A stretch of DNA of 64,000 bases, taken from the IMG/VR virus record IMGVR_UViG_3300042545_001484, positions 1 through 64,000 of that record; one strand, 5' to 3'. This DNA is from a virus. Both the position numbers and the translations under genes were made by a program. The notes beneath the pieces were generated by a model. That model did not search any database. It was not told where the DNA came from and was given only the letters and a program-made list of their open reading frames with translations. Every line of letters starts with the position of its first letter. Within the stretch, counting starts at the first letter, position 1. Positions 8,175-35,934 of this stretch are shown here, piece after piece.

Positions 8175-8182
8175 AGTTTAAT

Positions 8183-8258: not shown

Positions 8259-8262
8259 ATTC

Positions 8263-8338: not shown

Positions 8339-8352
8339 TTTTTGGAGATTGT

Positions 8353-8530: not shown

Positions 8531-8542
8531 GGAAGATATATT

Positions 8543-9340: not shown

Positions 9341-9346
9341 GACATA

Positions 9347-9435
9347 GGAACGTGGGCAGGACGGTAATGCAGCAGACTGCTAATCTGTACTACCTGTAAA
9401 GGGTAGACTGGGTTCGACTCCCAGACGTTCCGCCA
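9347..9435 (+). tRNA. tRNA-Ser (GCT), type II
   Basis: Acceptor ggaacgt/acgttcc; loop cuGCUaa; long variable arm; CCA encoded. Confidence 0.85.
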
Positions 9436-9542
9436 AGTTTGCGTGGTTTGTTTGCATAGAAAAGAGATGAGGTCGACCTTATGTAACCCCATTGAGCAAA
9501 CAGTAATACAGAGCAGCGGGGACTGTTCCACACAGAGTTTAT

Positions 9543-9618
9543 GGTGGTCGAGGTGTTAATGGATACATGCTGGATTGTGAATCCGGAGTTGCGGGATCGT
9601 TACCCGTCGATCACCCCA
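9543..9618 (+). tRNA. tRNA-His (GTG) with encoded G(-1)
   Basis: 8-bp acceptor stem including G-1:C73 (ggtggtcg/cgatcacc), the His identity feature. Loop uuGUGaa. Variant T-loop ATCGTTA. CCA encoded. Confidence 0.75.
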
Positions 9619-9619
9619 T

Positions 9620-9697
9620 GGGGGTATAGGCCAATTGGTTAGAGTCAGGGGACTTAAAATCCCCACAGTGTGGGTTCGAGTCCCACTACCCCTACCA
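9620..9697 (+). tRNA. atypical tRNA, anticodon TAA (Leu, UUA) but class-I architecture
   Basis: Acceptor gggggta/tacccct; anticodon stem gggga/tcccc with loop cuUAAaa; canonical GGTTCGAGTCC T-arm. Only a 3-bp D-stem can be drawn and the variable arm is 5 nt; bacterial tRNA-Leu is normally type II. Confidence 0.5.
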
Positions 9698-9708
9698 TAA
9701 AATAGTGC

Positions 9709-9745
9709 TTGACATATTATTTATTTCGAGTTATAGTGAATTATA
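9709..9745 (+). promoter_or_regulatory. conserved promoter cassette variant (TTGACA, 17 bp, TATAGT) ahead of the structured RNA and tRNA-Thr/Ala
   Basis: Consensus-like sigma70 hexamers at 17-bp spacing. Confidence 0.55.
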
Positions 9746-9794
9746 GTGAGAAAATCACTAAATACGTTGCTCTTTGAAATTGTTAGACCTTTTA

Positions 9795-9912
9795 GATGAC
9801 CACACTGGAAGTTCCTGTGGCGACCAAGCGCTCGGGGGAAGATAGGAACGTAAAGAGCGAAATTACTGCCAGTGTGCGTGGCAACATCTCAGTAGCCAGT
9901 GTGGTCATTTAA
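9795..9912 (+). ncRNA. candidate small structured RNA 1 in the tRNA cluster
   Basis: A 13-bp perfect long-range stem (ATGACCACACTGG...CCAGTGTGGTCAT) encloses about 90 nt with internal hairpins. No ORF. Lies between a promoter and tRNA-Thr. Reminiscent of the T4 stable RNAs C and D. Confidence 0.3.
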
Positions 9913-9922
9913 GAAGTTTACT

Positions 9923-9998
9923 GCCCTTATAGCTCAGTTGGTAGAGCACCTGCCTTGTAAGCAGGGGGTCTGGGGTTCGAGTCCTCATGAGGGCACCA
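9923..9998 (+). tRNA. tRNA-Thr (TGT)
   Basis: Acceptor gccctta/tgagggc; loop cuUGUaa; CCA encoded. Confidence 0.85.
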
Positions 9999-10147
9999 TT
10001 ATTCTAGGATATGAATATGAGAAGCGAATCTGCAGAATGTGTGATGTATGTGCCCGATACACCTTTGAATCGTGCGGCATTTACAGATGAAACGGTTTTA
10101 GCAGAGATATATAAAGTTTCGAATATTAAAATTGTGTTTAAAGAATT

Positions 10148-10223
10148 GGGGGATTAGCTCAGCTGGGAGAGCGTCTGCCTTGCACGCAGAAGGTCAACGG
10201 TTCGATCCCGTTATCCTCCACCA
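10148..10223 (+). tRNA. tRNA-Ala (TGC)
   Basis: G3-U70 identity pair; very close to E. coli tRNA-Ala (GCTCAGCTGGGAGAGC...TTGCACGCAG...). CCA encoded. Confidence 0.9.
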
Positions 10224-10227
10224 TTAT

Positions 10228-10360
10228 AGACCACCTCTGCTGAACCTCGTGGGAAACCACATAGAGAAAAGGGTAGCGCTTGCTGTTGCAACAGTAAAGA
10301 CTATCTAGGAAGATCAAGCGTCCGGAAGTAATTGATCAAGGCACACTGTGGGTGGTCGCT
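10228..10360 (+). ncRNA. candidate small structured RNA 2 in the tRNA cluster
   Basis: Terminal stem AGACCACC...GGTGGTCG with the same GACCAC motif as RNA 1; internal palindrome ctgttgcaacag. No ORF. Between tRNA-Ala and the radical SAM gene. Confidence 0.3.
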
Positions 10361-10377
10361 CATAAAAAGGAATTAAA

Positions 10378-11394
10378 ATGTTATCTTCTAGCGACAGTAA
10401 TATGACTTATGTGCAATCTAGACTCGCCAAGGCGAAGATCAAAATGCTTCAGCTTGATGTGTTTGGATTCTGTAATGCCAAATGTTGGTATTGCCCTGTA
10501 AGATATATTCCTCAGCCAGAAGAAGGCATGGTTCAAATGCCTTTGGAAACTGTCGAGAAAATCTTCAAGCAATTTGTAGAAGAACGAGACAAAGAAGAAG
10601 GTGTTGTTGATCGCAGCTTTAGTTTGTTTATGACAACTCATTATAGCGAGATTCTTTTGTATAAGGATTTTGCTGGGCTGTTGGAACTTGCCAGAAAATA
10701 TAAGCTGCAGACTTTTATTCTCAGTAATGGTATGAACCTGAACAAAGAAAAAGTCGATCTGATCAAAGAGTATAAAGATGTTGTTCCTCATATTGGGCTG
10801 AACATTCCTGCTTTTGAGAAGGAACTGTGGGCAAAGCGTGCTGGGTTTCCTGAAAGACGGTTCGACGAATTGATGGAGAATCTGGATTATGCAGGAGAAA
10901 CTCTGCATGGGCTTATAGAACTCAATATCCATGTCAACGGTGTTAACACTGAAGATTTCAATGGTCGAACAACCAAAGGTCCAAAGTTTGACGAACTTGA
11001 TATTAACTTAGACAGAGAACATGGCGAGTGGGAACGACAGTGGGTGATCGCTGATCGAAGGTTCCCCAAGTTTAATGTCGGCAAAGGTTCGTTGATGGAT
11101 CGCACTGGTTTGCTTTCTGATTATATTTCTAACAAAGAGATGCAGGAACGCAGACTCGAGACTCGCACCGTTGTCGGTTGTGGAAATTGGGGCGACAGAA
11201 CCACCGAATGGCTGCATATCAATGCAGCAGGTGACGTGATTCTTTGTTGTAACGATTATAATTTCGACTATAAGTTTGGAAACATTAACACCCAAACTAT
11301 TCGAGAAATTTGGGGCAGCGATGCCCATGCCGCTACAGTTGAACGAGCATATCGTGAGATATGTGCAAATTGTACGGCAGCAATAATTATCTAA
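10378..11394 (+). CDS. radical SAM enzyme with a C-terminal SPASM/twitch-like Cys-rich domain
   Basis: CxxxCxxC (CNAKCWYC) near the N-terminus. C-terminal cluster VVGCGNWGD...LCCND...ICANC. 338 aa. Confidence 0.7.
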   Translation: MLSSSDSNMTYVQSRLAKAKIKMLQLDVFGFCNAKCWYCPVRYIPQPEEGMVQMPLETVEKIFKQFVEERDKEEGVVDRSFSLFMTTHYSEILLYKDFAGLLELARKYKLQTFILSNGMNLNKEKVDLIKEYKDVVPHIGLNIPAFEKELWAKRAGFPERRFDELMENLDYAGETLHGLIELNIHVNGVNTEDFNGRTTKGPKFDELDINLDREHGEWERQWVIADRRFPKFNVGKGSLMDRTGLLSDYISNKEMQERRLETRTVVGCGNWGDRTTEWLHINAAGDVILCCNDYNFDYKFGNINTQTIREIWGSDAHAATVERAYREICANCTAAIII

Positions 11395-11486
11395 TTGACT
11401 CCGACCTCTGGTTTAAGTTCCGACCTGAACTGACAGGCGGTAACATTTGTGTCCTAGGAAACGCATTTGTTAAGGAGTTTTTATTT

Positions 11487-11562
11487 GCCTTTGTAGCTCA
11501 GTTGGTAGAGCAGTGGATTGAAGATCCACGTGTCGGGGGTTCGACTCCCTCCGAAGGCACCA
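11487..11562 (+). tRNA. tRNA-Phe (GAA)
   Basis: Acceptor gcctttg/cgaaggc; loop uuGAAga; CCA encoded. Confidence 0.85.
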
Positions 11563-11651
11563 GTTAATAGCTAAACTACTCGCATACCGTATGGTGTATG
11601 GAGTCTGTCGTGAATGTTTAGCACGTGTATCGAGACGTGAGATACTCCTAT

Positions 11652-11734
11652 GCGGGTATGGTGGAATTGGCAGACACACTAGTTTTAGGTACTAGCGCTT
11701 CGGCGTGGGGGTTCAAGTCCCTCTACCCGTACCA
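11652..11734 (+). tRNA. tRNA-Leu (TAG), type II
   Basis: Acceptor gcgggta/tacccgt; loop uuUAGgu; long variable arm; CCA encoded. Confidence 0.85.
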
Positions 11735-11740
11735 TTTTAA

Positions 11741-11825
11741 GGGTCGGTAAAGCCAGTGGCTCTGGCAGTCGGACTGTAAATCCGATCCGTCTTCGGGGGA
11801 GGATCGATACCTCACTGACCCACCA
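11741..11825 (+). tRNA. tRNA-Tyr (GTA), type II
   Basis: Acceptor gggtcgg/ctgaccc with a G-U pair; loop cuGUAaa; long variable arm; variant T-loop ATCGATA; CCA encoded. Confidence 0.75.
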
Positions 11826-11827
11826 TT

Positions 11828-11903
11828 GGGGGCGTAGCTCAATCGGGAGAGCACCAGCTTGTCACGCTGGAGGTAGTGGGATCGAAACCCATCGTCCTCG
11901 CCA
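11828..11903 (+). tRNA. tRNA-Asp (GTC)
   Basis: Acceptor gggggcg/cgtcctc with two G-U pairs; loop uuGUCac; CCA encoded. Confidence 0.8.
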
Positions 11904-11918
11904 CTAAATAAGTTTAAT

Positions 11919-11993
11919 GCGGATGTAACTCAGTGGTAGAGTGTCAGCCTTCCAAGCTGTTCGTCGTCGGTTCGATCCCGATCATCCGCTCCA
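11919..11993 (+). tRNA. tRNA-Gly (TCC)
   Basis: Acceptor gcggatg/catccgc; loop cuUCCaa; resembles E. coli tRNA-Gly2; CCA encoded. Confidence 0.85.
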
Positions 11994-11999
11994 CTTTTG

Positions 12000-12080
12000 C
12001 CCAAGTATCCCTCTCCGCTACGAACGGAGCCAAAGGTAACTGGAAGTAAGATGCAGGTTCGAATCCTGTCGAGGGCTCCA
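12000..12080 (+). pseudogene. degenerate tRNA-like element: intact T-arm, 3' acceptor strand and CCA, an Arg(ACG)-type anticodon hairpin, but no canonical 5' acceptor or D-arm
   Basis: GCAGGTTCGAATCCTGT, then CGAGGGC-T-CCA, but no complementary 5' strand. Hairpin ctccg-CUACGAA-cggag. Could not be folded into a cloverleaf. Confidence 0.3.
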
Positions 12081-12085
12081 TATAT

Positions 12086-12162
<77 letters not shown>

Positions 12163-12168
12163 GTTTTT

Positions 12169-12243
12169 GTCGGTGTGGTGAAATGGCTATCATTACGGTC
12201 TCCAAAACCGTCGTTCCGAGTTCGAGTCTCGGCACCTTCGCCA
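12169..12243 (+). tRNA. tRNA-Trp (CCA) with two mismatches in the acceptor stem
   Basis: D-arm, anticodon stem acggt/accgt with loop cuCCAaa, and T-arm are canonical. Acceptor gtcggtg/caccttc has C3-U70 and U2-U71 mismatches. Confidence 0.55.
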
Positions 12244-12258
12244 GTTTTTAGGTGATTT

Positions 12259-12696
12259 ATGTTTGATGAAGCAAAGAAGGCAATTATAGAATCAAGCGAC
12301 ACTTCTACAATTTATGTTGGTGCCGATAGCATTCGATATAAAAAGAACAAGGAGTGGTGGGCAAAGTATTCGACCGTGATCATCCTGCACAAGGATTCGA
12401 AGCATGGTTGTCAGCTTTGGCACAATTCGGTTGACATGCGCGACTACGGAAACCTTCGTCAAAGAATGATCACCGAAGCTGGATTTGCGATCCAAGCAGC
12501 AACAGAAATTATTGATGTTGTTGGCGATCGCAAACTAGAAATTCACCTTGACATCAATCCTGATCCTAAGCACAAATCTAGTATTGCGATAAAAGAAGCA
12601 TTGGGATATGTCAAAGGAACTACTGGTCTTGATGCAAAAGTTAAACCTGAGGCATTTGCTGCAACGCATGCAGCTGACCATATGGTAAGAAGTTAA
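12259..12696 (+). CDS. hypothetical protein inside the tRNA cluster (145 aa), possible RNase-H-like nuclease fold
   Basis: IYVGADS, VIILH and EIHLDINPDP segments loosely resemble the acidic catalytic segments of RNase-H-like nucleases. Ends 2 nt before tRNA-Val. Weak call. Confidence 0.5.
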   Translation: MFDEAKKAIIESSDTSTIYVGADSIRYKKNKEWWAKYSTVIILHKDSKHGCQLWHNSVDMRDYGNLRQRMITEAGFAIQAATEIIDVVGDRKLEIHLDINPDPKHKSSIAIKEALGYVKGTTGLDAKVKPEAFAATHAADHMVRS

Positions 12697-12697
12697 T

Positions 12698-12773
12698 GCG
12701 GGATTAGCTCAGTTGGTAGAGCGTCTGCTTTACACGCAGAATGTCGGCAGTTCGAGCCTGTCATCCCGTACCA
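12698..12773 (+). tRNA. tRNA-Val (TAC)
   Basis: Acceptor gcgggat/atcccgt (G1-U72); loop uuUACac; CCA encoded. Confidence 0.85.
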
Positions 12774-12966
12774 AATATCTGGACCGACGGGTCTAGTAAG
12801 AAGTGTGACTGAATAATCCCCTCGTCAGTGGGGATAAAGTAGACTCGGGGATTGGTCTCCTGCTTAACCAGCTAACGAGTCGTGGGTCGAGATTACAGAT
12901 AGTAATTGACTGGACCTTGGAGGTATACCTAAATCCTCCCACTTCGCTTTTATTATAAATAGATGC

Positions 12967-13576: not shown

Positions 13577-14029
13577 ATGGGAAAGATGCTAAAACGAGTG
13601 ACGGCACTAATGCTGCTCCTGACAAGCAGCCACCTGCAAGCAAGTGAACTGGTCCATCAATTTAAAAATCCTTCATTCTCTGGCGTCAATGCTGGAGCGC
13701 AATGGCTGACGATTGAAAATCAAGAGACTCTGCGTAAAAAAACTATACAGGACAAGATAGAAGCTGATTTGAAAGCAAAGGCTCTCGAAGAAAAAAACTC
13801 TATTTTGAATCGTTTCTTGAATAACTTGCAGTCTCGTATCTATTCTCAGCTGGCACAACAGCTTACCAATAATTTGTTTGGCGAAGATGGCGGAGAGGCT
13901 GGAGAATTCATACTCGAAGGCAACACTATCAAGTATGAAAAAACTGAAACAGAAATTAAACTTGTGATCATTGATGCAGCTGGCAATCAAACTGAGATTA
14001 TAGTTCCAACAAGTGGATTCAAGTGGTAA
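13577..14029 (+). CDS. csgF: CsgF-like curli assembly protein
   Basis: Signal peptide. The mature N-terminus ELVHQFKNPSFSGVNAGAQWLTIENQ matches the E. coli CsgF N-terminus ([28 protein letters not shown]). Stop overlaps the csgG start (TAATG). Confidence 0.6.
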   Translation: MGKMLKRVTALMLLLTSSHLQASELVHQFKNPSFSGVNAGAQWLTIENQETLRKKTIQDKIEADLKAKALEEKNSILNRFLNNLQSRIYSQLAQQLTNNLFGEDGGEAGEFILEGNTIKYEKTETEIKLVIIDAAGNQTEIIVPTSGFKW

Positions 14030-14841
14030 TGTGGAAGATTCTATTATTACCTTTTCTTCTGTGTGGTTGCGTGGCATCTGGACCTGTTGGTCTTCAATTA
14101 AAAGAAGATGCAAAGATTGTAAAGACACAAGTCAAAGAATTATACAACCTTCCTGCGCCTGACAGACAAGCAGTAGTAGCGGTTTATGACTTTCCTGATA
14201 TGACAGGTCAACGCAGAGATAAAGATGGTATTGCCAGCATATCAACTGCAGTCACACAAGGCGGAACACCACTATTAATTTCTGCTTTGAGGGATGCAGG
14301 TGGAGGAACATGGTTTAGAGTTGTAGAACGAAATCGTGTCGAGGATCTTGCCAAAGAACGTCAGATTGTTAGACAGACTCGTGAAGAATATCTTGGTGAG
14401 GGTGCAAATAAACTCGAACCAATGCTGTTCGCTGGGCTCATCATCCAAGGTGGTATTATCGGGTATGATAGTAACATACAGACAGGCGGAGCAGGAGCAA
14501 GATATCTTGGTGTAGGAGGCTCTGTCGTCTACCGAAAAGATCAGGTTGTTGTTTCTCTGCGAGGAGTCAACACTAATACTGGAGAAGTTGTTCTTAATGT
14601 GCAAGTTTCTAAAACAGTATTATCTGTCGGTAAAGATCTGTCACTGTTTAAATTTGTCGATGTTGGCACAAAATTGGTGGAAGCCGAAGCAGGCATGACC
14701 GAAAATGAAGCCAACACCATGGCAGTCAAAATGGCGATTGAAGAAGCAGTTTTACAATTGATAAAACAGGGTATCGAGAAAGGATATTTTAAGTTCGCAC
14801 CGAAGATCGATATCGATCGATCGGTATCATTAAAGGAATAA
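14029..14841 (+). CDS. csgG: CsgG curli secretion channel lipoprotein
   Basis: Lipobox LLCGC. Long collinear similarity to E. coli CsgG: LPAP...VAVYDFPDMTGQ, LISALRDAGGGTWFRVVERNRVEDLAKERQI, GGIIGYDSNIQTGGAGARYLGVGG, VNTNTGEVVLNV. Confidence 0.85.
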   Translation: MWKILLLPFLLCGCVASGPVGLQLKEDAKIVKTQVKELYNLPAPDRQAVVAVYDFPDMTGQRRDKDGIASISTAVTQGGTPLLISALRDAGGGTWFRVVERNRVEDLAKERQIVRQTREEYLGEGANKLEPMLFAGLIIQGGIIGYDSNIQTGGAGARYLGVGGSVVYRKDQVVVSLRGVNTNTGEVVLNVQVSKTVLSVGKDLSLFKFVDVGTKLVEAEAGMTENEANTMAVKMAIEEAVLQLIKQGIEKGYFKFAPKIDIDRSVSLKE

Positions 14842-14846
14842 GGGTA

Positions 14847-15542
14847 ATGAAAAATAAAATAGCTCTTTTCATTATGTTTCTGATGACGAGTTCGGTGAGT
14901 TTTGCACAAACAACAACCAACTCGATTTTTATTGATCAGGTCGGTGATAGTAGCACTATTACTATTACCCAAAAAGGTCAAACCAACAGCATCGGTTCTG
15001 AGCAGAATCGAGTAGTAATTGAAGGTAATAACCAAACAGTTACAGTCAAACAAGAAGGTAATGGAAACATTATCCAAGGCTCTATTGTTCAAGCAGATAA
15101 TGTCGATAAGGATGTTACTGTTACTGGCGACAACAATAAGTTGACGTATGACGAAGGCGATAGCGGTAGTGTGGCTGGATCCACCAAAACACTTACAGTG
15201 ACTGGGGATTCAAACGACTTGACCTTTAATCAGGGTACAGCGGCATCAGCCACTAATGCTACACAAACTATCGCAATCACTGGTGACACCAACACAATGA
15301 CATCCACCATAAATGCGGATGATGTGGTGAACACTAAGACTATTGTTGGTGATGGTAATACTATTACTACGCTGCAGAATGGCAATGCTGGGAAGAATAT
15401 TGAATTGGTTCTTACAGGCAGTACAAATACATTAACAATAAATCAGCAGAGCACAACAAATGTTGACACACTTAAAGTTGATAGCACGAGCAACGGCAGC
15501 ACTATTACTATTAATCAGTGCAACGCAGGTGGTCCATGCTAA
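14847..15542 (+). CDS. secreted curlin-repeat-like (CsgA/CsgB-type) beta-solenoid protein
   Basis: Signal peptide. About 8 imperfect ~22-aa repeats of the form x-I-x-I-x-Q-x-G-x-x-N-x-I (IDQVGDSSTITITQKGQTNSIGSEQ...) reminiscent of curlin repeats. C-terminal Cys pair. Confidence 0.5.
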   Translation: MKNKIALFIMFLMTSSVSFAQTTTNSIFIDQVGDSSTITITQKGQTNSIGSEQNRVVIEGNNQTVTVKQEGNGNIIQGSIVQADNVDKDVTVTGDNNKLTYDEGDSGSVAGSTKTLTVTGDSNDLTFNQGTAASATNATQTIAITGDTNTMTSTINADDVVNTKTIVGDGNTITTLQNGNAGKNIELVLTGSTNTLTINQQSTTNVDTLKVDSTSNGSTITINQCNAGGPC

Positions 15543-16551
15543 TATTGGTAAGGTAACTCAAACTCGAGGTTCGAGCGAAGTTGTGAAGAAAACTGCAAAG
15601 GTTCCTTCACGACTTCAGTTACCTATTGCCAAGATGGACAAAGTGCAGACTGGAAACGGTAGAGTCGAGATAACTTTTTTAGACGACTCTACCGTCAAAG
15701 TCACTGAAAATTCTAGGCTTGTTGTTGATGATTTTGTTTACAGCGGCAATCCATCAACATCAAAAATGGTTCTCAAATTTGCTTCGGGGACTGCCAGATT
15801 TGCGACAGGTAAATCCGGAAAAATCAACAAAGGCAATATTAATCTGAGAACACCAACAGCCACGATTGCTGTTCGTGGAACAGACTTTGCGACCACAGTC
15901 GATGATTTTGGAAAGAGTTTGGTCATCCTTCTGCCAGAGGAAGATGGATCAGTTGGTGAGATTACTGTTTCAAATGCTGCTGGCTCAGTCATTTTGACCA
16001 GAGCGTTTCAAGCGACCATAGTATCAACCACAGACAGCAGACCTACTCGTCCAGTCATTCTGAATATGTCACTTGATCAAATTGATAATATGCTCATCGT
16101 AGCACCTGCCGAAGAATTCAAGACTGAGGAGGAATTGAGAGATATCAGGACTAACATGCTGGATCTCTCTGAACTTGATGTAGATTTCCTTGCCAAAGAT
16201 GATCTACAAGAAAATGCACTTGCAAGTTCGGATCTTGATATTAATGCAATCGATGCAAATTACCTCGGCGAAGACTTTTTAGACAATGCTTTAGGAGCAG
16301 ATAATTGTGTCACCAGAGAAGACACCAAGTTGTGCGGAACAACATTTGGGCTAGATAATACTACACAGATAACTACAATTCTTTCTGGAGATTATCTACG
16401 GCTCGTTCGGACACTAAGTAGTACTGTTGACATTGTTGTCAAAAAAGATTCAAACAAAACATTATACATAGATAGTAATGGAAAGTCATTTCTAATCGAA
16501 GTAAATCAACCATCGGGCGGGACTATTATAAATGTCAAACAAAGCGATTAA
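15460..16551 (+). CDS. FecR-domain protein with signal peptide; overlaps the curlin-like gene by 83 nt in another frame
   Basis: Signal peptide ...LLLLISATQVVHA. FecR-like segment GTARFATGKSGKINKGNINLRTPTATIAVRGTDF. FecR-domain proteins commonly partner CHASE2 sensors. Confidence 0.6.
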   Translation: MLTHLKLIARATAALLLLISATQVVHANIGKVTQTRGSSEVVKKTAKVPSRLQLPIAKMDKVQTGNGRVEITFLDDSTVKVTENSRLVVDDFVYSGNPSTSKMVLKFASGTARFATGKSGKINKGNINLRTPTATIAVRGTDFATTVDDFGKSLVILLPEEDGSVGEITVSNAAGSVILTRAFQATIVSTTDSRPTRPVILNMSLDQIDNMLIVAPAEEFKTEEELRDIRTNMLDLSELDVDFLAKDDLQENALASSDLDINAIDANYLGEDFLDNALGADNCVTREDTKLCGTTFGLDNTTQITTILSGDYLRLVRTLSSTVDIVVKKDSNKTLYIDSNGKSFLIEVNQPSGGTIINVKQSD

Positions 16552-20948: not shown

Positions 20949-21770
20949 TTGATCGTATCAACCGTTCCTAACATGGAGCTTATCCCTATGTCTCAAACTG
21001 CTTTTGATATTACAGAAGAAAACAATTATAGACCGACTCGTAAAGAGAGAAAGATGTCTAGAAAATCTCAAAGAGGTAAACCTAATAACGTTGTCCAATT
21101 ACATCAACCGAATCCTCTTCAGCTAGAAAACATTAAACCGAAAACTGAAAATCAACGAAAGACATTTAGAGAATACTCGACAGGTAAAAATCTATTGCTT
21201 CATGGAGTCCCAGGAAGCGGAAAGACCTTTATCAGCCTTTACCTTGCTCTAGATGAATTGGCCAACAATAATTCAAAACTTCAAAAAGTTGTAATCATCC
21301 GAAGCGCACAATCTTCCAAAGGCATCGGTTTCTTACCAGGAACTGCAAAACAAAAGATGGAAGTCTATGAAACACCCTACTCCTCGATCTGTTCTAAGTT
21401 GTTTGATCGAGGCGACGCATACCAAGTTCTAAAGAATAAGGGAATTGTTGAATTTGAATCAACATCGTTCCTTCGCGGTACCACGATTGATGATGCAATC
21501 ATTATCATCGATGAAGCGCAAAACCTTTCCTACCAAGAATTAAAAACTGTATTGACTCGTGTCGGAGATAACTCTAAGATCGTTATCTGCGGAGATGTCA
21601 ATCAGGACGATCTAACCAGCTCCAGATACAGCGAAGAATCTGGTCTTAAATCAATCATGAAAATTATGGATAGAATTCCATCGGTTTCCAAGATTGAGTT
21701 TGAGATCCAGGATATCGTTCGTTCTGGATTCGTCAAAGAATTTATCATCGCAGAGTTAAATATCGCTTGA
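20949..21770 (+). CDS. phoH: PhoH-like ATPase
   Basis: Walker A (LLHGVPGSGKTF) and Walker B (IIIDEAQN); common T4-like auxiliary gene. Confidence 0.85.
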   Translation: MIVSTVPNMELIPMSQTAFDITEENNYRPTRKERKMSRKSQRGKPNNVVQLHQPNPLQLENIKPKTENQRKTFREYSTGKNLLLHGVPGSGKTFISLYLALDELANNNSKLQKVVIIRSAQSSKGIGFLPGTAKQKMEVYETPYSSICSKLFDRGDAYQVLKNKGIVEFESTSFLRGTTIDDAIIIIDEAQNLSYQELKTVLTRVGDNSKIVICGDVNQDDLTSSRYSEESGLKSIMKIMDRIPSVSKIEFEIQDIVRSGFVKEFIIAELNIA

Positions 21771-21804: not shown

Positions 21805-22470
21805 ATGTTTGAATTGAATCTTATAGACTTTACTGAACTTGAATCTGAAACACGTGAAGACGGAAGGTTCTACACTACTCCTGAGGGAATTGTGTATCCT
21901 TCCGTCACCACTGTTCTAGGTGCAACAAAAGACCAATCTCATCTCCAGAAATGGAAAGAAAGATTAGGCGAAGAGGCTGCTGCTCGAGAGAGCAAGAGAA
22001 CAGCTGATCGAGGAACTGCTCTCCACCTATTGTGCGAGAAGCTAGTCCTTAACCAACCCTATGATCTTCGAAAAGAAATGCCTGTTCCTGTGCAGTTGTT
22101 CAGTCAGCTGCGACCAGTCATACAGGAAAATGTCAACAATATCAGAGGTGTTGAATCTCCTCTATATTCAAACTTCCTTGGTATCGCAGGTCGAGTCGAT
22201 CTCGTTGCTGATTGGCAAGGAAAGACCTCAATCATTGACTATAAGTCCAGTAACAAGGTCAAGAAGCGTGAATGGATTGAGGACTACTTTCTGCAGACAT
22301 CTATATATGCAGTGATGTTCGAGGAACTTACAGGAATTCCTGTTCCTCAGCTGGTCATTCTGATCGGCACCGAAGAGTCAACCAAACCTTCTGTCTTTGT
22401 CGAAAAGCGAAACGATTGGATCTACAAAGCCATGGATCGCATCAATCTCTATAAAAAGTCCTTGCTTTAA
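21805..22470 (+). CDS. PD-(D/E)xK family nuclease (exonuclease-like)
   Basis: GRVDLVADW...IIDYKS gives the D-x-(D/E)-x-K motif; 221 aa. Confidence 0.55.
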   Translation: MFELNLIDFTELESETREDGRFYTTPEGIVYPSVTTVLGATKDQSHLQKWKERLGEEAAARESKRTADRGTALHLLCEKLVLNQPYDLRKEMPVPVQLFSQLRPVIQENVNNIRGVESPLYSNFLGIAGRVDLVADWQGKTSIIDYKSSNKVKKREWIEDYFLQTSIYAVMFEELTGIPVPQLVILIGTEESTKPSVFVEKRNDWIYKAMDRINLYKKSLL

Positions 22471-23353: not shown

Positions 23354-23563
23354 ATGAGTAAGTTTATTTGGGTAAGAGATCGCGACAAGTTTGAACACTA
23401 TATTAATGTAAATCATATCATCGATGTGAAAAAGATTCCGGCACATGGCGTTTATAGCGCCGCCGCATATATCATATTAGCAAAAGAAGGCGAAATTCCC
23501 TTATCTCTGGATCAGTTCGATACATATGAGGATGTGATCACCAAAATTCAGGCTGCAGCATGA
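23354..23563 (+). CDS. hypothetical protein (about 70 aa)
   Basis: Short ORF whose stop overlaps the start of the epimerase gene. Confidence 0.4.
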   Translation: MSKFIWVRDRDKFEHYINVNHIIDVKKIPAHGVYSAAAYIILAKEGEIPLSLDQFDTYEDVITKIQAAA

Positions 23564-24555
23564 AGAAGGCGATTGTTACTGGAGCATCAGGGTTCATCGG
23601 GCGTGTTCTCCAGCTAAAGCTGAAAGAAGCTGGTTATTATGTCATTGGCGTAGACGTAAAGTGTGACAATTACGACTGGAACACTGATGAGTTTTTTATT
23701 GATAATTATGCAACAATTGCCTCTGACGGCGATCTGGATGGCGTTGATGCAATCTTCCATCTTGGCGCTAACAGTTTGCTTGGGCCATCGGTATCCAAAC
23801 CACTATACTACTATGATAATAACGTTAGTAGTATGTGCGATATGCTGTCCAATTTAGCTAGAGAAAACTGGAAGGGTGCATTTATCTTTGCATCCTCTGC
23901 TGCAACATATGGTGATATGCGCAGCCCTGATCCTTTGCCTGAAGTTGTGGCTGGAAGTCCAATCAATCCCTATGGCTCAACCAAGTGGGTTGGTGAGATG
24001 ATGTTGAAAGAATCATGCGAAGCGTATGGCCTCAAGGCATACTCAATGCGCTTCTTCAATGTTGCTGGTGCATACAAAGGTATCGGCCAAGCTGCTAATC
24101 AACCACATATCCTTACCAAAATGTCAAAGGCATCTTTGACTGATGACACATTCTACATCAACGGTAATGAATACGACACCTTTGATGGAACATGCGTAAG
24201 AGATTATATCCACGTAGCTGATGTGTGTGATGCTCTGGTTGCTGCAGCAGAACAACTATATAATAAGCCTGAACGTGAATACGACACCTTCAATGTTTGC
24301 AGTGGCAAACCTGTGTCGAATCTGCAACTTGCTCTTACATTCGCAAAACTATATCCTCTGGAATATGATATTGCGGAAGTTCGTCCAGGCGATCCTGGAT
24401 TCCTGATTGGCGATCCATATAAATTGTCGTTGATGTGGCCAGAAGGTCCAAAGTATGATCTCGCCGACATCATCACTTCACACTTTGAATCTATTAGTAG
24501 CCAGATGCTTGTTGGGCAACCATGGCTCCGAACTTACGATGGGAAATTACAATGA
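23560..24555 (+). CDS. hldD: NAD-dependent sugar-nucleotide epimerase, HldD-like (ADP-L-glycero-D-manno-heptose 6-epimerase)
   Basis: GASGFIGRV Rossmann motif. Collinear with HldD: VDAIFHLGANS, FIFASSAATYGD, NPYGSTK (YxxxK), YSMRFFNVAG. Confidence 0.65.
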   Translation: MKKAIVTGASGFIGRVLQLKLKEAGYYVIGVDVKCDNYDWNTDEFFIDNYATIASDGDLDGVDAIFHLGANSLLGPSVSKPLYYYDNNVSSMCDMLSNLARENWKGAFIFASSAATYGDMRSPDPLPEVVAGSPINPYGSTKWVGEMMLKESCEAYGLKAYSMRFFNVAGAYKGIGQAANQPHILTKMSKASLTDDTFYINGNEYDTFDGTCVRDYIHVADVCDALVAAAEQLYNKPEREYDTFNVCSGKPVSNLQLALTFAKLYPLEYDIAEVRPGDPGFLIGDPYKLSLMWPEGPKYDLADIITSHFESISSQMLVGQPWLRTYDGKLQ

Positions 24556-25550
24556 GTAGTATTTGGGAACGTAATGAATTGAACGCAAAGTCTCAAGGTG
24601 GGACAGAGCGAATGATGGAAGGTGTTCTGGCTCGATTGAAGCCAGAGTACCACGAAAAGTTTCAGATTATCCCCTCGCGTGTGCGCGAGCTGCATGATGA
24701 TCGCATCCGTATCTATTGGTTGCACGATTTGCCTTGGGATCCCGAGACCAAGCATTTGACCGCCGAGAACAGTCGCAACCGTTTCCACAAGATTGTCTAC
24801 TGTGGCCAGTGGCAGATGAACATGTACCAAAATCATTTGGGAATTCCGCACACTCAGCAAAGCTGTGTCATTGATACTGCGACAACTCCTTTTGGCCCAA
24901 TCAACAAGAGTGATCCGAAAGAAGAAATTCGTTTGGTTTACACCAGCACTCCTCAACGTGGTCTGAACATTCTTGTTCCTGTGTTCGAGAAGCTATGCGA
25001 AAAGTATGACAATATCGTGCTTGACGTTTTCTCAAGCTATAAGATCTACGGTTGGGAAAATGCTGATCAACAGTTCGAGGATCTGTTTGACAAGTGTCGT
25101 AATCATCCTAAGATTAACTACCATGGCTTTGCTCCGAACGAAACAGTTCGTGAGACTGTCGCAAAGGCACATATCTTTGCCTATCCTTCGATCTGGCCAG
25201 AATGCAACAGCCAGTCGTTGATCGAGGCAATGTCATCTGGTGCTGTCTGTGTTCACCCGAACTATGCTGGTCTTACCGATACCTCGGGTAGCATTACCAT
25301 TCAGTACCATTGGGATCAGGATGTCAATGTTCATGCGAATATGTTCTATGCTGTTCTGGATGACACAATCCAAAAGATGCGCGACAATGATATGATGCCG
25401 TATCTACAGTTCCAAAAGACTTATGCCGACTATCGCTACAACTGGGATAAGATTGGTAGTCAATGGAATGCGCTCTGCGAATCGTTGTTGAATGAATACG
25501 AAGGTAAGGATCTGTCTGTTCCTGCTCCCAAGTTTATCTACAAGTCGTAA
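24552..25550 (+). CDS. glycosyltransferase (GT-B, family 1/4-like)
   Basis: C-terminal ESQSLIEAMSSGAVCV...GLTD motif typical of GT4. Start overlaps the epimerase stop. Confidence 0.55.
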   Translation: MSSIWERNELNAKSQGGTERMMEGVLARLKPEYHEKFQIIPSRVRELHDDRIRIYWLHDLPWDPETKHLTAENSRNRFHKIVYCGQWQMNMYQNHLGIPHTQQSCVIDTATTPFGPINKSDPKEEIRLVYTSTPQRGLNILVPVFEKLCEKYDNIVLDVFSSYKIYGWENADQQFEDLFDKCRNHPKINYHGFAPNETVRETVAKAHIFAYPSIWPECNSQSLIEAMSSGAVCVHPNYAGLTDTSGSITIQYHWDQDVNVHANMFYAVLDDTIQKMRDNDMMPYLQFQKTYADYRYNWDKIGSQWNALCESLLNEYEGKDLSVPAPKFIYKS

Positions 25551-25552
25551 TT

Positions 25553-26497
25553 ATGATTCTTGCTAAGGCACCTCTTCGAGTTTCCTTCTTTGGTGGTGGG
25601 TCGGATATTCCTGCCCACTACCTTCGTTGGGGCGGATCAACAATCTCTACTGCGATTGACAAGTATGTCTACGTTGCAGTAGGAAGAACTCCTCAGAATC
25701 ACATCAAGATCAACTATTCTAAACAAGAATTGGTGACTGCTGTTGATGACATTCAAAATGAAATTGTCAAGAATGCCTTAAAATATTTCGGTATCAAATC
25801 TAATATCGAGATCACCACGTTCGCTGATATTCCTACAGTTGGCACAGGGTTGGCAGGTTCTTCTGCTTTCGCCTGTGCACTGGTGGCTGCTCTTGCTGAA
25901 TATTTCCCTAACGGTAAACGGTATAGCGAATATGAGTTAGCGGAAGCTGCATGTAACATTGAGATCGATATGTGCGGCTGGGCAATCGGGAAGCAAGATC
26001 AGTATGCCTCTGCCTTCGGTGGCATGAATTATATTGAATATCTTGCCAGCGATCGGGTGTTGGTCCAGAGAATCGACCCTAAAGGCATCGATAGCTCCAT
26101 GGTTTTGATTCCGACAAACATTCAGCGCCATGCTGCAGAGATTCTCAATAAAATTGATTTTGATCAAAAGACATACCTCATTCGTGAAATGTCACACATG
26201 GCGGATATGCATGCCGACCTTTCTCCGACCTACGATCTCTACGGTCCACTGCTCAACGAAGCATGGAAGTTTAAGAAACAGCTGGAAGGTGGAATCAGCA
26301 GCCCAGAGATTGATTCTCTTTATGACCGATGCCTGAAGGCTGGTGCGTCAGGGGCAAAGCTGCTTGGCGCAGGAGGAGGTGGATATATGCTGGCTCTGAC
26401 TGACAACAAAAACAAATTGAAGCATGAGTTTTCTGATCGAGTCTGTCTTGATGTGGCTGTCGCATTAGACGGGGCAAGAGTAGTATACAAGGATTAA
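25553..26497 (+). CDS. GHMP-family sugar kinase, HddA-like (D-glycero-D-manno-heptose-7-phosphate kinase)
   Basis: N-terminal APLRVSFFGGGSDIP; GHMP motif II PTVGTGLAGSSAFACA; motif III GAGGGGYM. Confidence 0.7.
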   Translation: MILAKAPLRVSFFGGGSDIPAHYLRWGGSTISTAIDKYVYVAVGRTPQNHIKINYSKQELVTAVDDIQNEIVKNALKYFGIKSNIEITTFADIPTVGTGLAGSSAFACALVAALAEYFPNGKRYSEYELAEAACNIEIDMCGWAIGKQDQYASAFGGMNYIEYLASDRVLVQRIDPKGIDSSMVLIPTNIQRHAAEILNKIDFDQKTYLIREMSHMADMHADLSPTYDLYGPLLNEAWKFKKQLEGGISSPEIDSLYDRCLKAGASGAKLLGAGGGGYMLALTDNKNKLKHEFSDRVCLDVAVALDGARVVYKD

Positions 26498-31420: not shown

Positions 31421-31630
31421 ATGAAGATCGTGAATTTGTTGCTCGTCGGAGTTGGTTTTTTTGCTGTTCTCGGCACGGTCGGTGCTAGTGACTTCTATGA
31501 AGAATGTCGTGCTGCTGCTGACTGTGTTGCTGGTCCACCGATCAGCCTTTCTGAAATCCTTATTCGTTGCTCCATCGGGGTTGCTCTGATTTGTTTGGGT
31601 GTTCTGAACGAATTGAAAGTTAAGATATAA
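31421..31630 (+). CDS. small membrane/secreted protein (ATG 31421 inside track ORF 31364..31630)
   Basis: MKIVNLLLVGVGFFAVLGTVGAS..., N-terminal hydrophobic helix; 4 Cys. Confidence 0.4.
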   Translation: MKIVNLLLVGVGFFAVLGTVGASDFYEECRAAADCVAGPPISLSEILIRCSIGVALICLGVLNELKVKI

Positions 31631-31953
31631 TGAGCCTAGATTCGTTTTTCGAGGCGGATCTGGTGAATGAAGTCCAGACGCTGGATGAGAAAATCAAACA
31701 GCGTCGGACACAAATGCTGGTACATTCGTATCGGTATTATGTGCTTGATGATCCAGTTATCACTGACGAAAAGTGGCAACAGTGGGCTGACGAGTTGACC
31801 GAACTGCAGGTGAAAAAGTCCAAGATTGGCTTTTATGATGATGCATTCGCCGACTGGAATGGTTCCACTGGTATGCACCTTCCGTTTGATAACTGGATCA
31901 AAGAGAAGGTAAAATACCTAAATAAAATATCAGTTGCTGACAGGCAACAGTAA
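31630..31953 (+). CDS. stand-alone protein resembling the N-terminal domain Ia of NAD-dependent DNA ligase (LigA)
   Basis: KIKQRRTQMLVHSYRYYVLDDPVITDEKWQQWADELTELQ parallels LigA [32 protein letters not shown]. Only 107 aa; no ligase catalytic domains follow. Confidence 0.45.
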   Translation: MSLDSFFEADLVNEVQTLDEKIKQRRTQMLVHSYRYYVLDDPVITDEKWQQWADELTELQVKKSKIGFYDDAFADWNGSTGMHLPFDNWIKEKVKYLNKISVADRQQ

Positions 31954-32335
31954 AAGCGGAAAGACAGGGGTTCGACTCCCCTCACCTCCACCATAGATAA
32001 AGCAACAGGGACTATACAGCGTACGTAATATAGGAACTGGCCGACCGCATGGCTTGCCTCAAGGGAGATAATGTTTGGGGACGAGTAACTGGATAGGAGT
32101 CATGACCTTGGATGTTACTTCAAGTTGGTGCTTTGTCTATGATGGGGGTGACCTGGATATCGATTTTCGTGTAATAGGGCGTCCGAGACTGATTGACTGG
32201 CAAAGTGCCACAAACTGTAAATGCAAACGACAATGACGTTGCCTTTGCTCTAGCTGCCTAACAGCTAGCATTGGGTATGAGTTCCACCTCGAAACAGAAC
32301 GGGCTCAAATACACACTACACACATAAGGAAAATA
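31935..32335 (+). ncRNA. ssrA: two-piece (circularly permuted) tmRNA (ssrA): acceptor piece ends CCA at 31993, coding piece starts GGGGGTGA at 32147, tag ANDNDVAFALAA encoded at 32223..32261
   Basis: T-arm AGGGG-TTCGACT-CCCCT, then CACCTCC-A-CCA, pairs with the downstream 5' GGGGGTG including a G3-U70 pair (Ala identity). The 5' consensus GGGGGTGACCTGGATATCGATTTTCG matches tmRNA 5' ends. Reading frame GCA AAC GAC AAT GAC GTT GCC TTT GCT CTA GCT GCC TAA. CCA-before-GGGG order is the alpha-proteobacterial two-piece arrangement. Outer boundaries are approximate. Confidence 0.6.
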
Positions 32336-32338
32336 ACT

Positions 32339-32545
32339 ATGTCTAATGATACACCTTTCTTGCTCCGTATGGACATGATCAAACTAGCTCAACAAAGAGC
32401 CTCAGAAAAATTCCATGCGAGTATGAATGCTGCCTATGAGAATTCTAGGTTGCACAATACGCCTCTTCCAGAAGTTGCTTATCCTGCCACAGATGACATT
32501 ATTGCTGAAGCACAACTTCTCAAATCTTTCGTTGATGGCAATTAA
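32339..32545 (+). CDS. hypothetical protein (68 aa)
   Basis: AAGGAAAATAACT RBS immediately after the tmRNA coding piece. Confidence 0.45.
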   Translation: MSNDTPFLLRMDMIKLAQQRASEKFHASMNAAYENSRLHNTPLPEVAYPATDDIIAEAQLLKSFVDGN

Positions 32546-32977
32546 TTAAATTGGGGTCTGGCGGGAACCTTGCAACAGAATCCCGCCACTTAGATGGACA
32601 CACAGTCTTTCAACCACATTGCACAGGATGTAATGTCACGACAGATCGACTGAGTTGCGCAACGTGTGTCCATCTAAGTCTAACCGAAGGTTTATAGCGG
32701 CAGACCGAAGGTTTTGGGGTAAACTCGAGACCTAAATAAAATGTTACCTCTGGGGGTCTTCCTCCATTGACTCTTACACAGCTTCAGTCTTTAGGGCACA
32801 GAAAGCAGTAGGCTCGCCTACTACCGACCAAACCATAATGATTCGCATTTCCAGTAAGAGGGAAATGGATTAGAAGATACCTCGACTTTCTTTATTATTG
32901 TATCTTCTCGTAGCGGTATTGTTCTTGTATGTTATACACGGAACAGTCGCCGACTCATTAAACTAAAGAGGATACAA

Positions 32978-33610
32978 ATGAAGAATTTCTTCAAAAATCT
33001 CACATCAAAATTTAATATTGATAAATTATTCGAACAGAGAATTGATTACCCAAATCTAACATATGGCTCAGGTTTTTGCATGGGAATGGTTGCCATTCTA
33101 ACTATATCTGCACTAGCTCCTGCCAAAGCAATTACTGTAGAAGTTCCGGTGATCCAAAAGGTTCCCGTGATCAAGATTGTTGAAAAGCCAACAATCGTGA
33201 AAGTTCCTGTAAAACTGGATCATAATGATCAAAAACAGATCCAGTGCCTCGCCGAAAACACATATTTCGAGGCTGGTAACCAATCAACCAAAGGCAAGAT
33301 TGCCGTCAACAATGTAGTTATGAATAGAGTAAATGATCCTAAAGGTCGTTTCGGAAAGACAGCATGTGCAGTTGTTTCACAAAGAAACAAAAGAACATGT
33401 CAATTTTCTTGGAAATGTGAAGGTCAGAAGAAAATTCGTAGCCGTGAGCAATTTGTCGAATCAAAGAAAATTGCTGAACAAGTATATCTTGGCAATTACG
33501 GGGACATTACAGGGGGAGCTAAATTCTATCATGCGAACTATGTAAATCCACGTTGGAATCTAGAAAGAGTCACACGAATTGGTGCACATATTTTTTATAG
33601 AGAAGGCTAA
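32978..33610 (+). CDS. SleB-type cell-wall hydrolase (Hydrolase_2 domain) with N-terminal signal-anchor; likely SAR-type endolysin
   Basis: TM segment GFCMGMVAILTISALAPAKA. Hydrolase_2 pattern QIQCLAENTYFEAGNQSTKGKIAVNNVVMNRVNDP...QFSW. Confidence 0.65.
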   Translation: MKNFFKNLTSKFNIDKLFEQRIDYPNLTYGSGFCMGMVAILTISALAPAKAITVEVPVIQKVPVIKIVEKPTIVKVPVKLDHNDQKQIQCLAENTYFEAGNQSTKGKIAVNNVVMNRVNDPKGRFGKTACAVVSQRNKRTCQFSWKCEGQKKIRSREQFVESKKIAEQVYLGNYGDITGGAKFYHANYVNPRWNLERVTRIGAHIFYREG

Positions 33611-35531: not shown

Positions 35532-35622
35532 GGAAGCGTGGGCGAGTGGTTGATGCCTGCAGTCTTGAAAACTGCCGTACGTGATGAGCGTACCGTGGGT
35601 TCGAATCCCACCGCTTCCTCCA
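35532..35622 (+). tRNA. tRNA-Ser (TGA), type II
   Basis: Acceptor ggaagcg/cgcttcc; loop cuUGAaa; long variable arm; GGTTCGAATCC; CCA encoded. Confidence 0.85.
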
Positions 35623-35650
35623 GTTTCAATTTTATTCTAAGGATTAACAC

Positions 35651-35851
35651 ATGAATATCAAAACTTTTATCGCCGCTGCTGTTGTTGCTCTTACTTCTGC
35701 ATGTGCTCAGGAAGCACCAGAAGCTGCTACTGAAGCTGCTACTGAAGCCAATACAGCTGTTACTGAAGCTGCCCCAGCCGATGTAGCTGTTAACCCAGCC
35801 GACCGCGATCACAGCGAAGCTCGTGCAGCTCATGCACCTGACAGCAAGTAA
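35651..35851 (+). CDS. small secreted lipoprotein with EAATEA repeats
   Basis: Signal peptide plus lipobox (LTSAC); low-complexity Ala/Glu/Thr mature region. Confidence 0.45.
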   Translation: MNIKTFIAAAVVALTSACAQEAPEAATEAATEANTAVTEAAPADVAVNPADRDHSEARAAHAPDSK

Positions 35852-35860
35852 TTGACTAGC

Positions 35861-35934
35861 TGCTCCTTCCTCTAAAGGTAAGAGATCGGACTTTGAATCC
35901 GTCAATTTAGGTTCGAGTCCTAAAGGAGCATCCA
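35861..35934 (+). tRNA. tRNA-Gln (TTG)
   Basis: Acceptor tgctcct/aggagca; D-stem ctct/agag; loop cuUUGaa; T-arm ttagg-TTCGAGT-cctaa; CCA encoded. Confidence 0.75.

Follow-up and report, generated by a model that had tools for sequence, protein, structure and literature searches.

The 64,000-nucleotide (nt) stretch analyzed here (the window), positions 1 to 64,000 of the IMG/VR virus record IMGVR_UViG_3300042545_001484, carries near its middle a locus in which the parts of a transfer-messenger RNA (tmRNA) gene, ssrA, stand in circularly permuted order. The question raised by this locus is whether it is a working tmRNA gene of the phage, the remnant of a bacterial gene, or an RNA put to some other use. 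The initial annotation had described it as a phage-encoded two-piece tmRNA with an alphaproteobacterial-type tag. Judged by sequence comparison, it is very probably a functional ssrA gene of the phage that belongs to the two-piece type of alphaproteobacteria; its architecture and its place in the genome are homologous to those of SsrA in phage Melnitz and the pelagimyophages.

A complete circularly permuted two-piece tmRNA was found on the + strand, with the CCA (31991-31993) upstream of G1 (32144). ARAGORN called it as a permuted tmRNA (tmRNA*) with the tag ANDNDVAFALAA. The Rfam model tmRNA_permuted (RF04321) gave 91.6 bits against a gathering score of 47 (E = 2e-16), and alpha_tmRNA (RF01849) gave 54.2 bits against a gathering score of 50 and covered 31894-32310. 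Both covariance models thus scored above their gathering scores, and together with the ARAGORN call they bear out the permuted two-piece structure and the alpha-type tag, far more than chance would give. When lower-scoring overlapping matches of the same clan were dropped, alpha_tmRNA was the best lineage-specific model, outscoring the beta and cyano subtype models. ARAGORN alone was insufficient; Rfam was needed because ARAGORN misses real permuted tmRNA genes, as in Sinorhizobium phage Phosso and in the related loci L073, L074 and L076. The features of the locus are as follows.

31886-31924 (+), predicted promoter region: sigma-70-like TTGATA-18-TAAAAT at 31886-31915 and -10 element TAAATA at 31919-31924
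31932-31993 (+), acceptor piece, about 62 nt; the Rfam match begins at 31932
31933-31948 (+), 5' hairpin GUUGC/GCAAC, one pair with a compensatory change
31956-31962 (+), 5' strand of helix P2a, GCGGAAA, forming 7 bp with UUUUCGU at 32164-32170
31966-31970, 31971-31977 and 31978-31982 (+), T-arm read from the sequence: AGGGG, TTCGACT and CCCCT
31983-31989 (+), acceptor 3' strand CACCTCC read from the sequence, followed by the discriminator A (31990) and the encoded CCA (31991-31993)
31994-32143 (+), intervening sequence (IVS) of 150 nt between CCA and G1, presumed to be excised from the precursor
32144-32310 (+), coding piece, about 165 nt, from the Rfam alpha_tmRNA coverage; 3' end approximate
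32144-32150 (+), acceptor 5' strand GGGGGUG, pairing with CACCUCC with G3-U70
32164-32170 (+), 3' strand of helix P2a, UUUUCGU, covarying in relatives
32198-32210 (+), hairpin UGGC/GCCA before the resume codon, covarying
32223-32261 (+), tag frame from ARAGORN: resume codon GCA, peptide ANDNDVAFALAA, stop UAA
32273-32307 (+), alpha-type H-type pseudoknot after the tag, from covariation and the 3' end of the Rfam consensus
32273-32276 with 32286-32289 (+), pseudoknot helix A, GGGU/ACCU; variants GAGU/ACUU and GCGC/GCGU
32278-32284 with 32301-32307 (+), pseudoknot stem B, UGAGUUC/GGGCUCA; loop CGAAACAGAAC

The T-arm, the CACCTCC strand, the A and the CCA ending at 31993 are all present as originally described. 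The 5' end, the start of GGGGGTGACCTGGATATCGATTTTCG, lies at 32144 and not at 32147, a slip of 3 nt, and the distance from the CCA, given as about 150 nt, is exactly 150 nt. Pairing of GGGGGUG with CACCUCC gives the G3-U70 wobble that had been proposed as the alanine identity element; G3-U70 never changes in the relatives, and acceptor pair 6 switches from A-U to G-C in the diverged ones. The T-arm shows two compensatory pairs in relatives (AU/CG/GC and GC/AU). Over 12 unique variants, 98.5% of the cells of the tRNA-like domain pair, against 47-58% with slid partners. Helix P2a covaries in diverged relatives (GCGGAAA/UUUUCGU, AUCUUCG/CGGGGGU, GUGAA/UUCAC). A P2 helix between the pieces, looked for by the initial annotation, could therefore be drawn, but the partner of the acceptor piece is the 5' part of the coding piece and not its 3' end. 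The alpha-specific T-loop GGCnGUA is not present in the window, which has the canonical UUCGACU instead; a GGCAGUA T-loop occurs in some relatives (L071, L086, L101 and L114) and in Melnitz.

In the coding piece the acceptor 5' strand is followed by a D-loop analogue, the P2a 3' strand, the hairpin, the tag frame and the 3' pseudoknot, and the first 80 nt are nearly invariant in the family. The hairpin varies as UGGC/GCCA, UGACC/GGUCA, UGAUCG/CGAUCA and GGCC/GGCC. The expected downstream tag frame with its stop was located at 32223-32261 (GCA AAC GAC AAT GAC GTT GCC TTT GCT CTA GCT GCC TAA), encoding ANDNDVAFALAA in agreement with ARAGORN. Comparison of 25 distinct tag coding sequences (17 peptides) revealed that the final two Ala use all four Ala codons with zero replacements, that the Leu at -3 uses five codons, that N-D-N is retained via synonymous changes, and that the stop is TAA or TGA. 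The synonymous-only variation at the LAA end indicates selection on the encoded peptide. Stem B of the pseudoknot occurs in at least eight different sequences of 6-11 bp among the relatives, every one of them paired; the pseudoknot matches the 3' end of the Rfam alpha_tmRNA consensus and is also present in Melnitz.

An exact-match scan of IMG/VR with a 24-mer of the coding piece returned 27 contigs, whose homologues have the same architecture. Further relatives were located via a neighboring gene. In total, more than 50 related contigs have kept the tmRNA gene. The start of the coding piece was not found in 185,579 bacterial species representatives, indicating a phage lineage of the gene and no recent capture. 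The covarying alignment of this strongly reduced alpha-type tmRNA also indicates which parts of the molecule are dispensable.

Both promoter candidates place the predicted transcription start near 31932, which is the first base of the Rfam match. TTGATA-18-TAAAAT has 10 of 12 consensus matches in a consensus scan, and TAAATA at 31919-31924 is the family-conserved -10 element. Across 35 variants the family motif TTGAC(A/T)-17-TA(T/A)A(A/T)(A/T) lies at a fixed distance from the acceptor piece, its -10 element often coinciding with the T4 late motif TATAAATA. CTAAATA is found at 31918 before the tmRNA and also just upstream of tRNA-Gly (11904), tRNA-Asn (5533) and tRNA-Ser (35472). An upstream open reading frame (ORF; 31630-31953, +) contains, in its last ~65 nt, the promoter together with 22 nt from the start of the acceptor piece. 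This ORF encodes a stand-alone 107-amino-acid (aa) protein consisting only of the NAD+-binding Ia domain of DNA ligase (Nlig-Ia; PF22745, 3.6e-25), with relatives in Escherichia, Arthrobacter and Erwinia phages.

The following course is proposed for the expression of the gene. Transcription from the promoter just upstream would start at about 31932 and yield one precursor comprising acceptor piece, 150-nt IVS and coding piece, in which the 7-bp acceptor stem would run on into a leader/trailer helix of about 15 bp that closes off the IVS. Host tRNA-processing enzymes would excise the IVS, RNase P cutting 5' of G32144 and endo- and exonucleases trimming to the encoded CCA at 31993, and the acceptor stem and helix P2a would hold the two pieces together. 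Host alanyl-tRNA synthetase would charge the RNA via G3-U70, allowing entry into stalled ribosomes with host SmpB and EF-Tu. Translation would then resume at GCA 32223, append ANDNDVAFALAA and stop, and the ALAA end would mark the product for ClpXP-type proteolysis. The phage could benefit by keeping ribosome rescue running in infection while host transcription is off and mRNA decay yields non-stop messages. We infer the processing enzymes and the dependence on host SmpB from the sequence, and the earlier proposal that the phage supplements or hijacks trans-translation has the same standing.

Several observations weigh against a functional alpha-type tmRNA. The margin for alpha_tmRNA is small, since the phage gene reaches 54.2 bits and alphaproteobacterial genes reach 250-273. 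In the alpha_tmRNA alignment the phage RNA has gaps in place of the outer P2 helices and of some of the sequence beyond the stop codon. When candidate helices were compared by eye in 26 diverged sequences, no support was obtained for a classical pseudoknot PK1 upstream of the resume codon, the local hairpin alone covarying. No terminator was found 3' of the coding piece, so that the 3' end given for it is approximate. No SmpB homologue was found in the 64 kb, a part of the genome, by tblastn at E < 1 with one probe sequence, so that activity would depend on host SmpB accepting the reduced tRNA-like domain. The benefit to the phage is itself a conjecture.

Phage-borne two-piece tmRNA has already been published, and the gene in the window is a homologue in syntenic position. 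In Melnitz, Buchholz et al. (2022; PMC9004378) described a two-piece ssrA immediately before the late-transcription coactivator gene; they also detected permuted tmRNAs in 17 of 47 related contigs and counted 133 unique tmRNAs in 18,146 phage genomes, 53 of them two-piece and nearly all from aquatic phages; the 2025 tmRNA database (PMC11915505) holds 79 unique phage tmRNAs. The window gene adds one uncultured lineage to this documented phenomenon.

Genes for both ribonucleotide reductase subunits, gp32, gp33, T4 RNase H, gp5, gp6, gp7, gp8, gp53 and a gp25-like protein mark the phage of the window as a T4-like myovirus. Like the window phage, Melnitz (ssrA at MZ577097.1 45984-46436) is a T4-like aquatic myophage with a permuted alpha-type ssrA. 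The promoter is sigma-70-like in both, with a -10 element overlapping TATAAATA (TTGACA-17-TATAAATA in Melnitz), and the acceptor piece ends in an encoded CCA in both. The IVS is 142 nt in Melnitz and 150 nt in the window, each with a leader/trailer helix and each ending in ...ATGAT before GGGGG (...TTTATGAT in Melnitz). The tags share the ANDN...ALAA form (ANDNYVPVDYALAA in Melnitz), and the pseudoknots share an AACAGAA loop, that of Melnitz being formed by UGAGGGUGU/ACAUCCUCA and GAGU/ACUU with the loop GUAAACAGAA. The gene order is also the same, with PhoH and a PDDEXK nuclease before ssrA and the coactivator, then gp32, along with CsgG, curlin and FecR genes. On the other hand, no nucleotide similarity between Melnitz and the window is detectable by blastn, the T-loop is canonical UUCGACU in the window and alpha-type GGCAGUA in Melnitz, and the window phage has 23 tRNA genes against four in Melnitz. 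The pseudoknot is followed in Melnitz by a predicted glutamine riboswitch, and in the window by a 68-aa ORF (ORF68) and a second pseudoknot copy. PMC9004378 describes a glutamine riboswitch (glnA RNA) within the 3' portion of ssrA as common in the group but not defining; searches of the window at the gathering threshold, of 32500-33100 at E ≤ 5 and of 31700-32600 at E ≤ 1 gave neither glnA RNA nor Downstream-peptide RNA.

By gp6 the window phage is nearer to Caulobacter phage Cr30 (41.5% aa identity) than to Melnitz and HTVC008M (~34%) or the Sinorhizobium phiM12 group (~34%). When 15 kb were compared with GenBank phages by megablast, only tRNA genes matched, revealing no close cultured relative. 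The range of the Melnitz/pelagimyophage-type ssrA locus includes T4-like phages that have Caulobacter and Sinorhizobium phages as their nearest isolates. Cr30 and the Sinorhizobium phages are not in the supplement list of PMC9004378, which has Caulobacter siphophages, and the tag ANDNDVAFALAA was not found in the text files of the supplement of PMC11915505.

The alphaproteobacterial two-piece tmRNA was first shown to be functional in Caulobacter (Keiler et al. 2000, cited in PMC9004378). Like this bacterial RNA (RF01849), the window RNA has the CCA before GGGG, G3-U70, P2a, the resume context UGCAAACGAYAAY, an ANDN...LAA tag and a 3' pseudoknot with a loop of the GCAACAGAA type. It differs in being reduced, in its canonical T-loop, in a far longer IVS and in its presence in a lytic phage with no smpB nearby. 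Permuted tmRNAs of other aquatic phages, namely Caulobacter siphophages (CcrSC, CcrBL9 and similar) and cyanophages (Table S1 of PMC9004378), belong to other families (giant siphophages and cyanomyophages) and have other tags, for example ANNIV... in the cyano type. Cyanophage-type permuted tmRNAs were also present in the IMG/VR scan (L039 and L040).

Among GenBank phage records, only that of the Sinorhizobium jumbo phage Phosso (L068; PV764938.1, ~349.5-350.2 kb) is similar to the tag/pseudoknot region of the window (blastn, 75% over 90 nt). It contains an alpha-type permuted tmRNA at L068 901-1590, unannotated in the record and missed by ARAGORN, with Rfam scores of 113 and 108 bits. Phosso differs from the window phage in being a 469-kb jumbo phage with an IVS of roughly 400 nt by the Rfam span.

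ACCA together with the trailer UAGAUAAAGCA at one end of the IVS pairs with the leader UGCUUUGUCUAUGAU at the other, which lengthens the acceptor stem by about 15 bp. This closing helix was scored by counting pairs in cis and in trans. The trailer of the window forms 13 of 14 pairs with its own leader and 6-8 of 14 with leaders of other phages; the family means are 11.9 pairs in cis and 7.5 in trans. A comparable extension of the acceptor stem, 14-16 bp formed by the discriminator, CCA and trailer with the leader, was present in Melnitz and in each of the seven long-spacer variants examined first. The sequences of the helix differ between phages, the pairing being kept by compensatory changes in every long-IVS variant. 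The closing helix would presumably hold the two termini of the tRNA-like domain close to each other despite a long insert and direct host RNase P and 3' processing enzymes in the excision; its conservation lends indirect support to cleavage of the precursor into two RNAs. Between CCA and G1, family members have 3, 5 or 42-157 nt.

The IVS does not follow the relationships of the gene that carries it. In the sequence on either side of the gene, L104 and L105 match the window at 98% and 96%, and their acceptor pieces, coding pieces and tags are identical to those of the window. Their IVSs, of 63 and 71 nt, are nevertheless unrelated to the 150-nt IVS of the window. L104, from ENA ERZ28612991 (MEHR18-2_SAMN08331102_METAG-scaffold_29221), is a 98%-identical sibling of the window region, possibly from a lake metagenome to judge by its sample name. 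The same mismatch of IVSs was found within the trio L101-103 and in several other pairs. Conversely, scans of IMG/VR and of Joint Genome Institute (JGI) metagenomes revealed the window-type IVS in three further tmRNA backbones (L113; L114; L111/L115 and L112/L116). Across different backbones 135-147 of its 150 positions are identical, whereas in the same pairs 43-49 of 62 positions of the acceptor piece and 56-64 of the first 79 of the coding piece are identical (69-81%), and the flanking DNA is about 60% identical. L113 is an exception, its backbone being close to that of the window. Wherever the window-type IVS occurs, it fills exactly the gap between CCA and GGGGG, and the window has one copy of it. 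There is hardly any variation in its first 63 nt, and the remainder differs by about 10%. On these comparisons the IVS behaves as an exchangeable cassette with a history uncoupled from that of the gene: this presumably discarded part of the locus is better conserved than any other between distant backbones, whereas near-identical phages can have entirely different versions of it.

The interior of the IVS folds no better than shuffled sequences (minimum free energy z = -1.6), RNAalifold of five near-identical copies gave a covariation term of only -0.36 kcal/mol with one compensatory pair, and it has no Rfam match. A conserved ORF was rejected, as a 15-codon ORF is broken by a 2-nt indel in L111. 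A miniature inverted-repeat transposable element was also rejected as the main explanation, because the terminal repeats differ with the IVS type and the flanking TA...TA belongs to the helix. The pattern may result from template switching at the base of the hairpin in co-infection, from homing-like conversion, or from a function of the excised RNA. According to PMC11915505, intervening sequences are variable and in some cases carry a tRNA or a repeat; the cassette behavior of the IVS, the linkage of ORF68 to the tmRNA and the displaced pseudoknot discussed below appear not to be described in PMC9004378 or PMC11915505.

The tmRNA lies about 1.3 kb upstream of the gp33 gene, with ORF68 and a cell-wall hydrolase gene in between:

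32339-32545 (+), ORF68, 68 aa, directly 3' of the tmRNA and preceded by a CA-rich leader and a Shine-Dalgarno sequence
32553-32588 (+), second copy of the 3' pseudoknot, GGGGU/ACCUU and UGGCGGGA/UCCCGCCA, loop GCAACAGAA
33614-33841 (+), gp33-type late-transcription coactivator (PF16805, 3e-16; PHROG 254)

ORF68 has no Pfam or PHROG match. Its relatives (32-59% identity) were found by an alignment-based search, a single-sequence search of the loci having found none, and occur at 32 IMG/VR loci, 27 of which have a same-strand permuted tmRNA call upstream. At the others there are partial motifs at a contig end (one locus), no upstream sequence (two) or no tmRNA (two). The last are L075 and L080, with no detectable tmRNA in 783 and 1590 nt upstream, so that the linkage of ORF68 and tmRNA is strong and not absolute. 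A large protein database contains 14 homologues, all unnamed, and 50,697 GenBank phage records contain none. AlphaFold predicted two helices (pLDDT 70, pTM 0.33), a model too simple and uncertain for a fold search. AcrIIIA1 (PMC11662646) was considered as a precedent for a small phage protein acting on tmRNA and was set aside, as no relation has been demonstrated.

The second pseudoknot gave a partial alpha_tmRNA match of 16-20 bits. In L021, which has no ORF68, this pseudoknot stands directly after the tag and is followed by the same downstream sequence as in the window, and in L022 the equivalent second copy retains a decayed L021-type tag. The simplest reading of these arrangements is that the second pseudoknot would be a displaced older 3' end, ORF68 having come with the replacement 3' end.

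The alternatives to a functional phage tmRNA can now be weighed. A functionless remnant of a host tmRNA gene, left as an attachment-site fragment by imprecise prophage excision or integration, would be in line with the frequent use of tmRNA genes as integration targets and the fragments of them found in prophages (PMC9004378), and also with the partial pseudoknot duplicate at 32553-32588. This duplicate, however, flanks one small gene and not an island. The gene is complete, with both pieces, tag and pseudoknot; dozens of lytic-type T4-like contigs retain it, with covariation and with exclusively synonymous change at key codons of the tag; its sequence is in no bacterial species representative; and the window has no integrase or recombinase among its 34 ORFs of at least 200 aa. 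A remnant is scarcely credible on this evidence, and the initial view of the locus as phage cargo, not an attachment-site remnant, is upheld by a complete, covarying gene with a selected tag in a T4-like genome without integrase among such ORFs. Alternatively, the processed RNA could serve a takeover of the host, out-competing or replacing the host tmRNA and redirecting tagging, proteolysis or RNase R recruitment (for example in the recycling of host proteins), perhaps together with ORF68. The phage tmRNA is indeed strongly reduced (54 against 250-273 bits), ORF68 is linked to tmRNA at 27-28 of 32 loci and absent from cultured phages, selective tagging of host proteins was raised as an option in PMC9004378, and a phage tmRNA consisting of the tRNA-like domain only (DS6A) inhibits host tmRNA, as cited in PMC11915505. 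Yet the canonical ANDN...ALAA tag is under purifying selection, and it is needed for ordinary trans-translation and not by a pure decoy. Moreover, the ORF68 model is only a low-confidence two-helix protein, and its linkage could reflect conserved gene order among related phages. We consider such a takeover unlikely, and ordinary trans-translation by the phage-borne RNA remains the preferred reading.

The distribution of the IVS could also mean that it is inherited as an independent unit, either a mobile or homing-type cassette targeting the CCA/G1 junction or an excised functional RNA. Its identity of 135-147/150 across backbones that share 43-49/62 of the acceptor piece and 56-64/79 of the 5' part of the coding piece, its fixed position between CCA and GGGGG, the unrelated IVSs of siblings with 98% identical flanks and identical pieces, and the contrast between its almost invariant 5' 63 nt and a 3' half differing by about 10% all argue in this direction. 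The IVS types, however, have no sequence in common, which speaks against a single element family. The window IVS occurs only once in the window, lacks an Rfam match and shows no significant interior fold, with one compensatory pair in five near-identical copies, and there is no endonuclease gene in the vicinity. When phages co-infect, ordinary recombination or template switching at the base of the long hairpin could produce the same pattern. An independent unit is a doubtful explanation. The broader proposal is that the IVS is an autonomous, horizontally exchanged RNA cassette (a new mobile or homing-type element specific for CCA/G1, or an excised functional RNA) and that, with ORF68, the ssrA locus is modular and actively remodelled and not a static borrowed host gene; this we regard as quite improbable. 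If a targeted exchange mechanism or a cofactor were real, it would give a handle on why phages carry tmRNA.

The initial annotation had also taken the tmRNA as a clue to the host. The tag form NDNxxAFALAA-stop was found in only 5 of the 185,579 bacterial species representatives. Four of these are alphaproteobacterial metagenome-assembled genomes (MAGs), three of them classed as Acetobacteraceae and one simply as Proteobacteria; all four have permuted tmRNAs with the tag ANDNHEAFALAA and score 250-273 bits with alpha_tmRNA; the fifth is a Chloroflexia MAG with a standard tmRNA. The tag and the affinities to Cr30 and phiM12 weakly favor an alphaproteobacterial host. Tag and subtype are indeed of the alpha type, but the clue is weak because Melnitz is a published counter-example, carrying an alpha-type ssrA yet infecting OM43, a non-alpha host (PMC9004378). 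An alpha-type phage tmRNA alone should not be used for host assignment.

The remaining observations concern the DNA around the locus. Downstream of the second pseudoknot there is a hairpin-closed insert at 32591-32676 (+), GATGGACACAC ... GTGTGTCCATC with a loop of ~60 nt, which is absent from L021 and present in L104 and L105. It is followed by a direct repeat of AACCGAAGGTTT at ~32682 and ~32706 and by a second copy, at 32731, of the 12-mer CCTAAATAAAAT, otherwise found only before the tmRNA. About 390 nt of conserved non-coding sequence, with no Rfam match, precede the hydrolase gene. In a 190-kb relative, a tRNA with a CUA anticodon (amber suppressor; labelled 'Pyl' by ARAGORN) lies ~1 kb 3' of the tmRNA-ORF68 module (L101 3976-4054, L102 2710-2788, L103 1733-1811), where it could serve stop-codon suppression or recoding.

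Elsewhere in the window, the genes for CsgG, a curlin-repeat protein and a FecR-domain protein stand in a row at 14023-16551 (+), forming the 'curli' block known from Melnitz and the pelagimyophages. Those for PhoH and the PD-(D/E)XK nuclease, which belong to the same unusual gene set of these phages, lie at 20949-21770 and 21805-22470 (+), and a sugar-modification block at 23560-26497 (+) encodes an NAD-dependent epimerase/dehydratase, a group 1 glycosyltransferase and a GHMP kinase. The 23 tRNA genes form an interrupted cluster at 5590-12773, with tRNA-Ser(UGA) and tRNA-Gln at 35532-35934 (+), ~3.3 kb 3' of the tmRNA. A radical SAM/SPASM-domain protein is encoded in the middle of the cluster (10378-11394, +). 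Right after the cluster, a manA RNA motif (RF01745) was detected at 12780-12949 (+) with 66.1 bits against a gathering score of 55.2, and the motif TATAAATA occurs at 12954.

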